From Escherichia coli (lineage in GTDB: Bacteria > Pseudomonadota > Gammaproteobacteria > Enterobacterales > Enterobacteriaceae), in the NCBI RefSeq assembly GCF_017348835.2, contig NZ_CP071375.1: DNA of 64,000 bases; one strand, 5' to 3'. The notes beneath the pieces are model-generated. The model saw nothing but the letters and a program-made list of their open reading frames with translations. It did not search any database and was not told the DNA's origin. Of this stretch, positions 1 through 1,428 are shown piece after piece (within the stretch, counting starts at the first letter, position 1; every line of letters begins with the position of its first letter). Both the position numbers and the translations under genes were made by a program.

Positions 1-1428
1 CATGTGGAAGACACATTGATTGCCGGGGCTGGTATTTGCGATCGCCATGCAGTTGAATTTGTCGCCAGCAATGCACGATCCTGTGTGCAATGGCTAATCG
101 ACCAGGGGGTGTTATTTGATACCCACATTCAGCCGAATGGCGAAGAAAGCTACCATCTGACCCGTGAAGGTGGACATAGTCACCGTCGTATTCTTCATGC
201 CGCCGACGCAACTGGTAGAGAAGTAGAAACCACGCTGGTGAGCAAGGCGCTGAACCATCCGAATATTCGCGTGCTGGAGCGCAGCAACGCGGTTGATCTG
301 ATTATTTCTGACAAAATTGGCCTGCCGGGCACGCGACGGGTTGTTGGCGCGTGGGTATGGAACCGAAATAAAGAAAAGGTGGAAACCTGCCACGCAAAAG
401 CGGTGGTGCTGGCAACCGGCGGTGCGTCGAAGGTTTATCAGTACACCACCAATCCGGATATTTCTTCTGGCGATGGCATTGCTATGGCGTGGCGCGCAGG
501 CTGCCGGGTTGCCAATCTCGAATTTAATCAGTTCCACCCTACCGCGCTGTATCACCCACAGGCACGCAATTTCCTGTTAACGGAAGCACTGCGCGGCGAA
601 GGCGCTTATCTCAAGCGCCCGGATGGCACGCGTTTTATGCCCGATTTTGATGTGCGCGGCGAACTGGCCCCGCGCGATATTGTCGCCCGCGCCATTGACC
701 ATGAAATGAAACGCCTCGGCGCGGATTGTATGTTCCTTGATATCAGCCATAAGCCCGCCGATTTTATTCGCCAGCATTTCCCGATGATTTATGAAAAATT
801 GCTCGGGCTGGGGATTGATCTCACACAAGAACCGGTACCGATTGTGCCTGCTGCACATTATACCTGCGGTGGTGTAATGGTTGATGATCATGGGCGTACG
901 GACGTCGAGGGTTTGTATGCCATTGGCGAGGTGAGTTATACCGGCTTACACGGCGCTAACCGCATGGCCTCGAATTCATTGCTGGAGTGTCTGGTCTATG
1001 GCTGGTCGGCGGCAGAAGACATCACCAGACGTATGCCTTATGCCCACGGCGTCAGTACGTTACCACCGTGGGATGAAAGCCGCGTTGAGAACCCTGACGA
1101 ACGGGTAGTAATTCAGCATAACTGGCACGAGCTACGTCTGTTTATGTGGGATTACGTTGGCATTGTGCGCACAACGAAGCGCCTGGAACGTGCCCTGCGG
1201 CGGATAACCATGCTCCAACAAGAAATAGACGAATATTACGCCCATTTCCGCGTCTCAAATAATTTGCTGGAGCTGCGTAATCTGGTACAGGTTGCCGAGT
1301 TGATTGTTCGCTGTGCGATGATGCGCAAGGAGAGTCGTGGCCTGCATTTTACGCTGGATTACCCGGAACTGCTCACGCATTCCGGTCCATCGATCCTTTC
1401 TCCCGGCAATCATTACATAAACAGATAA
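1..1428 (+). CDS. nadB: L-aspartate oxidase, C-terminal 475 codons (5' end lies outside the window)
   Basis: Open frame from base 1 to stop at 1428; translation shows flavoprotein/succinate-dehydrogenase-like motifs and matches my recollection of E. coli NadB; synteny with trmN6 and srmB. Confidence 0.93.

Follow-up and report, generated by a model that had tools for sequence, protein, structure and literature searches.

A conserved 16-nucleotide tail-to-tail overlap of nadB and trmN in Escherichia coli, most likely a frozen accident

The convergent genes nadB and trmN (yfiC) of Escherichia coli form a genuine short tail-to-tail overlap, in which two unrelated housekeeping genes share 16 nucleotides, and we consider it very probable that this arrangement is a frozen accident and not a device. 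The stretch of DNA that was analysed (the window) comprises 64,000 nucleotides of E. coli contig NZ_CP071375.1 (RefSeq assembly GCF_017348835.2) and begins within nadB. The overlap is already known: it is present in the reference annotation, and the gene pair has already been catalogued among convergent transcript overlaps. Here we describe the geometry of the junction, the evidence on which of the two genes is constrained, the likely origin of the overlap, and what can be said about a role of the junction or of its surroundings at the RNA level.

Results

Two protein-coding genes share sixteen nucleotides

The junction is made up of the following features.

1..1428, + strand: 3' part of nadB (L-aspartate oxidase), residues 67-540 of a 540-aa protein, open reading frame 4..1428
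1413..2150, − strand: trmN (yfiC / trmN6 / trmM), tRNA1(Val) m6A37 methyltransferase, 245 aa, ATG at 2150-2148
1413..1428, both strands: convergent overlap of the coding sequences, 16 nt, TTACATAAACAGATAA, with both stop codons inside

Read directly from the window, the stop codon of nadB is the TAA at 1426-1428, and that of trmN, also a TAA on the − strand, lies at 1413-1415. The + strand at 1411-1428 (CAT TAC ATA AAC AGA TAA) encodes the NadB tail ...H Y I N R stop, and the reverse complement of 1413-1430 (TTT TAT CTG TTT ATG TAA) encodes the TrmN tail ...F Y L F M stop, such that the nucleotides common to the two reading frames on opposite strands are exactly 1413..1428. On the trmN side the shared stretch corresponds to the codons Y-L-F-M and one base of the F before them, and on the nadB side to the codons Y-I-N-R and one base of the H before them. 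A reading made earlier from the letters of the DNA (the sequence-only reading) had placed a 16-bp convergent overlap of nadB and trmN6 at 1413-1428, with the nadB stop lying inside the last codons of trmN6, and both statements are borne out by the direct reading. The RefSeq annotation also agrees with the overlap. In K-12 MG1655 it is identical (nadB 2710420..2712042, + strand; yfiC 2712027..2712764, − strand), and the same geometry is annotated in the pig strain PE164 (L001; nadB ...3329 and trmN 3314...), which is 100% identical to the window over 1100-1800.

The matches to NCBIfam equivalog profiles indicate that nadB and trmN are both real protein-coding genes. NadB matches NF006567 with 931 bits (cut-off 629), and TrmN matches NF047853 from end to end with 420 bits (cut-off 350), its residues 2-245 lying on profile positions 1-244 of 244. 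The NadB of the window also aligns to residues 67-540 of PDB 1CHU/1KNP. A search of the PDB by sequence with TrmN, at E <= 1e-10, returned no close relative.

The geometry is conserved and both stops are correctly called

To survey the junction we used one genome per species, which returned 80 loci, nearly all from Enterobacteriaceae (the genera include Escherichia, Citrobacter, Salmonella, Klebsiella, Enterobacter and Kosakonia), with a TrmN 69-95% identical to the query. When each frame was walked to its stop, the 16-nt geometry was found in 78 of 81 loci, nearly all of them from different Enterobacteriaceae species, and the stop codons at this conserved junction vary among TAA, TGA and TAG. 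This persistence exceeds what is expected by chance. It could reflect selection on the overlap itself; the constraint on the TrmN tail, described below, is the simpler explanation.

The sequence-only reading had named a miscalled stop as the outcome that would overturn the overlap, and had proposed an ortholog alignment of trmN as the check, which we carried out. If one stop were an annotation or sequencing artefact, the two genes would not truly overlap. The TrmN tail is FYLFM in 80 of the 81 loci, the lone exception being FYIFM (L069), and a search of 1.84 billion cluster representatives revealed the motif L-T-x-x-F-Y-L, followed by 0-2 C-terminal residues, in most of 150 representatives of the TrmN family with 36-54% identity; the best 120 homologous proteins comprise close Enterobacteriaceae relatives only, at 69% identity or more. 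Because FYL, the core of the motif, is C-terminal across the TrmN relatives and is retained down to about 38% identity, the trmN stop is located where the family puts it. The NadB stop is likewise confirmed by orthologs, as 78 of 81 loci, sequenced independently of one another, have it in the same place, and the protein can be aligned up to residue 540, with which the crystallised E. coli enzyme (PDB 1CHU) ends. Moreover, 5425 of 5426 complete E. coli genomes contain a match. We found nothing in favour of an artefact, which the ortholog alignments rule out and to which we assign a negligible probability.

The allele carried by the window is itself uncommon. Over the 701 bases of 1100-1800, just 5 of 5425 E. 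coli genomes reach an identity of 99% or more to it, 5002 genomes are 95-99% identical and 416 are 90-95% identical.

The TrmN tail holds the nadB stop in place

Among the surveyed loci the 16-mer occurs as 30 DNA variants, and its variable positions are synonymous sites of trmN (third positions, or the first position of Leu), save for the Leu-to-Ile change in L069. The last four residues of NadB, on the other side, vary as [H/Y][I/M][N/K][R/K/M], as predicted from the third-position changes in trmN, and the composition of the NadB tail is thus an arithmetical consequence of the synonymous codon choices of trmN. The Phe-Tyr codons of TrmN supply the NadB stop (TAR) from their antisense strand, given that TTY-TAY reads R-TAR-AA on the other strand, so that the nadB stop is fixed in place for as long as the F-Y of TrmN is kept. 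Judged from these substitutions, it is the trmN tail that is constrained and the nadB tail that is free.

The length of 16 nt is in itself trivial, since every + strand frame that enters the trmN tail meets a stop, within 8, 16 or 30 nt, the stop after 8 nt being the antisense of Phe-Met. The other two frames (8 and 30 nt) are used by the natural frameshift or indel variants L007, L031 and L036, which means that the NadB tail tolerates replacement. On the sequences of these three variants, the tail is probably dispensable.

The overlap at these exceptional junctions is 8 nt in L007 and L031 and 12 nt in L036. L007 has a frameshifted NadB tail, and its nadB appears to have internal deletions (possibly a pseudogene or an assembly problem). 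L031 ('Escherichia sp. ESNIH1', about 3725-3755) carries a 14-nt tandem duplication, CTACATAAAGAGAA, at the junction, which accounts for its 8-nt overlap and for a NadB ending in ...NYIKRTT. In L036 the NadB tail is shortened and ends in ...SILSHK. In a further locus, that of Intestinirhabdus alba (L024), nadB is not located downstream of trmN. An unrelated putative open reading frame of 132 aa (3723-4121, − strand) uses this antisense stop there and has ...WPHINR as its tail, which indicates that any frame entering at this point is halted by the TrmN Phe-Tyr codons.

The overlap is probably a derived state

The wider synteny was analysed in the contexts of more distant TrmN representatives (44-54% identity), four of which come from sequencing-read assemblies. 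Downstream of trmN these contexts contain the following.

L085: convergent nadB, with a 70-nt spacer
L088: convergent nadB, with a 119-nt spacer
L090: convergent nadB, with a 109-nt spacer
L083: a transporter gene inserted between trmN and nadB
L087 and L091: no nadB; rpoE comes after trmN
L093: an unrelated context

The relatives with a spacer or an insertion (L085, L088, L090 and L083) have a TrmN identity of 51-54%. All four have srmB upstream of trmN, and rpoE lies beyond nadB in L085, L088 and L090, so the neighbourhood is conserved in the spaced relatives. An alignment of the NadB C-termini with MAFFT reveals that the proteins of L085, L088 and L083 end in ...P-T-I-L-(H/Q)-P, and that NadB of Enterobacteriaceae is 6-7 residues longer. 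In the window this difference corresponds to the following feature.

1405..1425, + strand: Enterobacteriaceae-specific C-terminal extension of NadB, G-N-H-Y-I-N-R in the window, absent from the non-overlapping relatives

The alignments to the broad NadB model TIGR00551 and to the archaeal structure 2E5V are consistent with this extension, as they end at residue 454 of 474, which is 20 residues short of the E. coli NadB C-terminus.

The simplest reading of these comparisons is that the overlap is a derived state, probably fixed early in the Enterobacteriaceae, for which we infer the following order of events. In an ancestor of the family, the spacer between trmN and nadB and the original nadB stop would have been lost, after which the translation of nadB would have continued over 6-7 more codons until it met an in-frame stop, the first one, provided by the antisense of the TrmN Phe-Tyr. 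The constrained TrmN tail (FYL) would have held the nadB stop in place ever since, and the last residues of NadB would since then have mirrored the synonymous codon choices of trmN. The comparative data thus present the overlap as a passive by-product of the loss of the spacer.

The 70-nt spacer of L085 includes, at 3790-3818, an 8-bp inverted repeat, AGGGCGCA(11 nt)TGCGCCCT, followed by ATTTCAAT on the nadB-sense strand. This putative hairpin, which was not called by the terminator consensus scan, may represent the ancestral terminator.

Transcription and termination at the junction

Two further statements of the sequence-only reading, that there is no room for terminators between the genes and that each transcript must run into the other gene, also hold. 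As there is no intergenic DNA, the complete mRNAs of nadB and trmN are complementary over at least 16 nt, with each continuing into the other gene, and we observed no convincing intrinsic terminator nearby. Terminator-like consensus sites near the junction number 2, vs 1.5 ± 1.2 in shuffled sequences, with none between the stops, and a scan with Rfam gathering thresholds found no family at the junction. One weak site lies in trmN.

1543..1565, + strand: weak terminator-like site in trmN, a 5-pair stem with the tail CTTCGTTTTC, not above chance and also present in K-12

Bidirectional intrinsic terminators address the same problem, that of ending two converging transcripts, and the 8-bp hairpin of the L085 spacer could act in this way. 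The window differs in that the two genes leave no DNA between them, and a GC-rich hairpin with an A-tract on one side and a U-tract on the other was not found between the two stops. On general grounds, transcription of nadB and trmN probably terminates in a Rho-dependent manner or in a collision-dependent one, a mechanism described in bioRxiv 10.1101/2022.10.23.513370, or is simply terminated inefficiently. Overlapping 3' ends are usual for the convergent operons of E. coli: 276 of 370 (75%) have them, with a mean length of 286 nt, also in cases that leave space for a terminator (PMC4161252). The lack of terminator room at nadB-trmN is therefore not special. As for overlaps of the coding sequences themselves, 75 convergent cases are known in E. 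coli K-12 (PMC4161906).

The sequence-only reading had also suggested that the overlap could allow antisense interference. The pair would then be a functional convergent excludon, in which the induction of one gene lowers the other, either by transcriptional interference or by RNase III cleavage of the duplex, and NAD synthesis would be linked to tRNA modification. We know of no functional link between these two pathways, that of nadB and that of trmN, which speaks against such a device, as does the fact that syntenic relatives manage with a spacer of 70-119 nt, or with no nadB at this position. In its favour, the geometry makes an overlap of the transcripts unavoidable, the arrangement has been kept throughout the Enterobacteriaceae, and the nadB-yfiC pair is part of the E. 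coli 'excludome', being listed among 165 convergent excludons or transcript overlaps in at least 50% of 58 MG1655 RNA-seq data sets (PMC12288877). However, this listing is based on RNA-seq coverage only and is not a test of regulation (PMC12288877). Furthermore, neither nadB nor yfiC occurs in the 10 supplementary files searched, possibly truncated, of a p19 study of RNase III-cut dsRNA, in which low-abundance genes such as these two could be missed, and at 3' overlaps the p19 capture yielded 37.9-fold fewer dsRNA reads than it did at 5' overlaps (PMC7373196). Likewise, nadB and yfiC have no entry in the supplementary tables searched of SMRT-Cappable-seq, of the Term-seq of Adams et al. or of TERMITe.

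Taken with the literature searched, in which we found no evidence of antisense regulation at nadB-trmN, these observations make a functional excludon improbable, and we infer that the overlap has no regulatory role. The earlier interpretation is thus partly supported: its structural part is correct, and antisense regulation is unsupported by anything that we found.

Hairpins embedded in the two coding sequences

Two hairpins are located within the coding sequences, each some distance past the stop of the opposing gene.

1503..1530, + strand (seen on both strands): perfect 10-bp hairpin in trmN, GCATTCTCCC / GGGAGAATGC, 75-102 nt past the nadB stop
about 1217..1254, − strand (trmN-sense): imperfect 15-pair G-U-rich hairpin in nadB, 159-196 nt past the trmN stop

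The trmN hairpin, which codes for the peptide A-F-S-P-K-A-G-E-C, has a folding energy of −21.4 kcal/mol, vs −9.5 ± 2.8 kcal/mol for 3000 synonymous recodings, none of which is as stable (0/3000), and the nadB hairpin has a folding energy of −14.3 kcal/mol. In a codon-shuffle scan of 746 windows, covering both strands of nadB, trmN and srmB, the nadB hairpin has the lowest z of all (−4.6) and the trmN hairpin the second lowest (−4.1). In about 3.5 kb of coding sequence, no structures depart further from their synonymous recodings than the two hairpins past the two stops, with the qualification that these windows were chosen after seeing the data. Across 22 genus-level representative loci, where related species are not independent samples, the two windows are the only outliers, that at 1217-1254, with its median z of −1.9, being the only one among 35 nadB windows.

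These values raise the question of whether the terminators were relocated, so that the 3'-end hairpin of each gene sits in the coding sequence of the other (1503-1530 for nadB and 1217-1254 for trmN), where the hairpins would serve as stem-loops, either Rho-independent or positioning collisions, or would block exonucleases. The stability of the trmN hairpin relative to its recodings argues for this, as does the fact that the two lowest z values belong to the antisense windows that come shortly after the stops, and stem-loops have been reported to position the collisions of RNA polymerases between convergent genes (bioRxiv 10.1101/2022.10.23.513370). However, neither hairpin is followed by a U-tract, and covariation is lacking in trmN, where 61.7% of cells are paired vs 61.5% in shuffles, and weak in nadB (74.1% vs 73.2%); in each of them, changes on both sides were seen for only 2 pairs. 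Only Escherichia, Citrobacter, Salmonella and a few others have a strong trmN hairpin, which is weak or absent in most genera (median z of −0.8 over 80 loci) and scores at least as well on the sense strand as on the antisense strand. With the post hoc choice of the windows and the relatedness of the species also counting against it, we regard a relocation of the terminators as unlikely.

Two more specific candidates were rejected. The hairpin at 1503-1530 was discarded as an intrinsic terminator for lack of a U-tract, and a family-wide conserved RNA structure was discarded for either hairpin, as there is no compensatory covariation and no Rfam match at the junction.

Even so, the extreme values hint at some selection on the RNA, which a purely passive model does not predict. 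A role of the hairpins in the formation or protection of 3' ends is possible, at a low probability. The hairpins at 1503-1530 (+) and 1217-1254 (−) may be the points at which the trimming of 3' ends stops in E. coli, and the former may protect the 3' end of the nadB mRNA. A more far-reaching proposal is that, once the spacer had been lost, the 3' signals were rebuilt as hairpins by selection on synonymous sites, and that the forced overlap couples the NadR-controlled nadB to the level of the tRNA-Val m6A37 methyltransferase; this we consider highly improbable.

Other features of the window

Several landmarks were identified elsewhere in the window, namely an rRNA operon with tRNA-Glu in its spacer (15282-20294), the RyfD sRNA (23292-23430), the pheA leader (28176-28301) and ssrA, the tmRNA (46061-46423), which is followed by the ypjA autotransporter gene and recombinase remnants. 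The tRNA with a CAT anticodon at 54310-54385 (−) is called tRNA-Met by ARAGORN and tRNA-Ile in the RefSeq annotation of PE164; as a tRNA-Ile it would presumably be lysidine-modified, of the ileX/ileY type. In the matching strain PE164, RefSeq marks glaH (csiD), at about 57533-58511 (−), as a frameshifted pseudogene.

Discussion

The nadB-trmN junction resembles the short convergent overlapping gene pairs, in which the last few codons of one bona fide gene overlap those of another on the opposite strand and the overlap arose via the movement of a stop codon, and we find nothing essential that is different here. What this pair adds to the type is that the direction of the constraint can be read, and that relatives still show the ancestral spacing. 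The likeness to convergent excludons and overlapping 3' UTRs, such as E. coli mscL-arfA and the ExcludonFinder pairs, lies in the neighbouring transcripts that are complementary at their 3' ends. However, in characterised excludons one transcript was shown to depress the other, whereas nadB-trmN is known from coverage and geometry, and its complementarity follows inevitably from the overlapping coding sequences, whereas that of excludons results from long read-through into the 3' UTR.

As a frozen accident, the locus is a worked example of how convergent overlaps arise and persist, with little wider importance. If the embedded hairpins were functional 3'-end signals, it would be of use as a model of how terminators can be hidden in antisense coding sequence. 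For the Enterobacteriaceae pair itself, the principle is that a conserved Phe-Tyr near one C-terminus automatically gives a stop codon to a gene entering from the opposite side, and that the tail of the incoming protein, where it is overlapped, is then left to drift, mirroring the synonymous sites of its neighbour.
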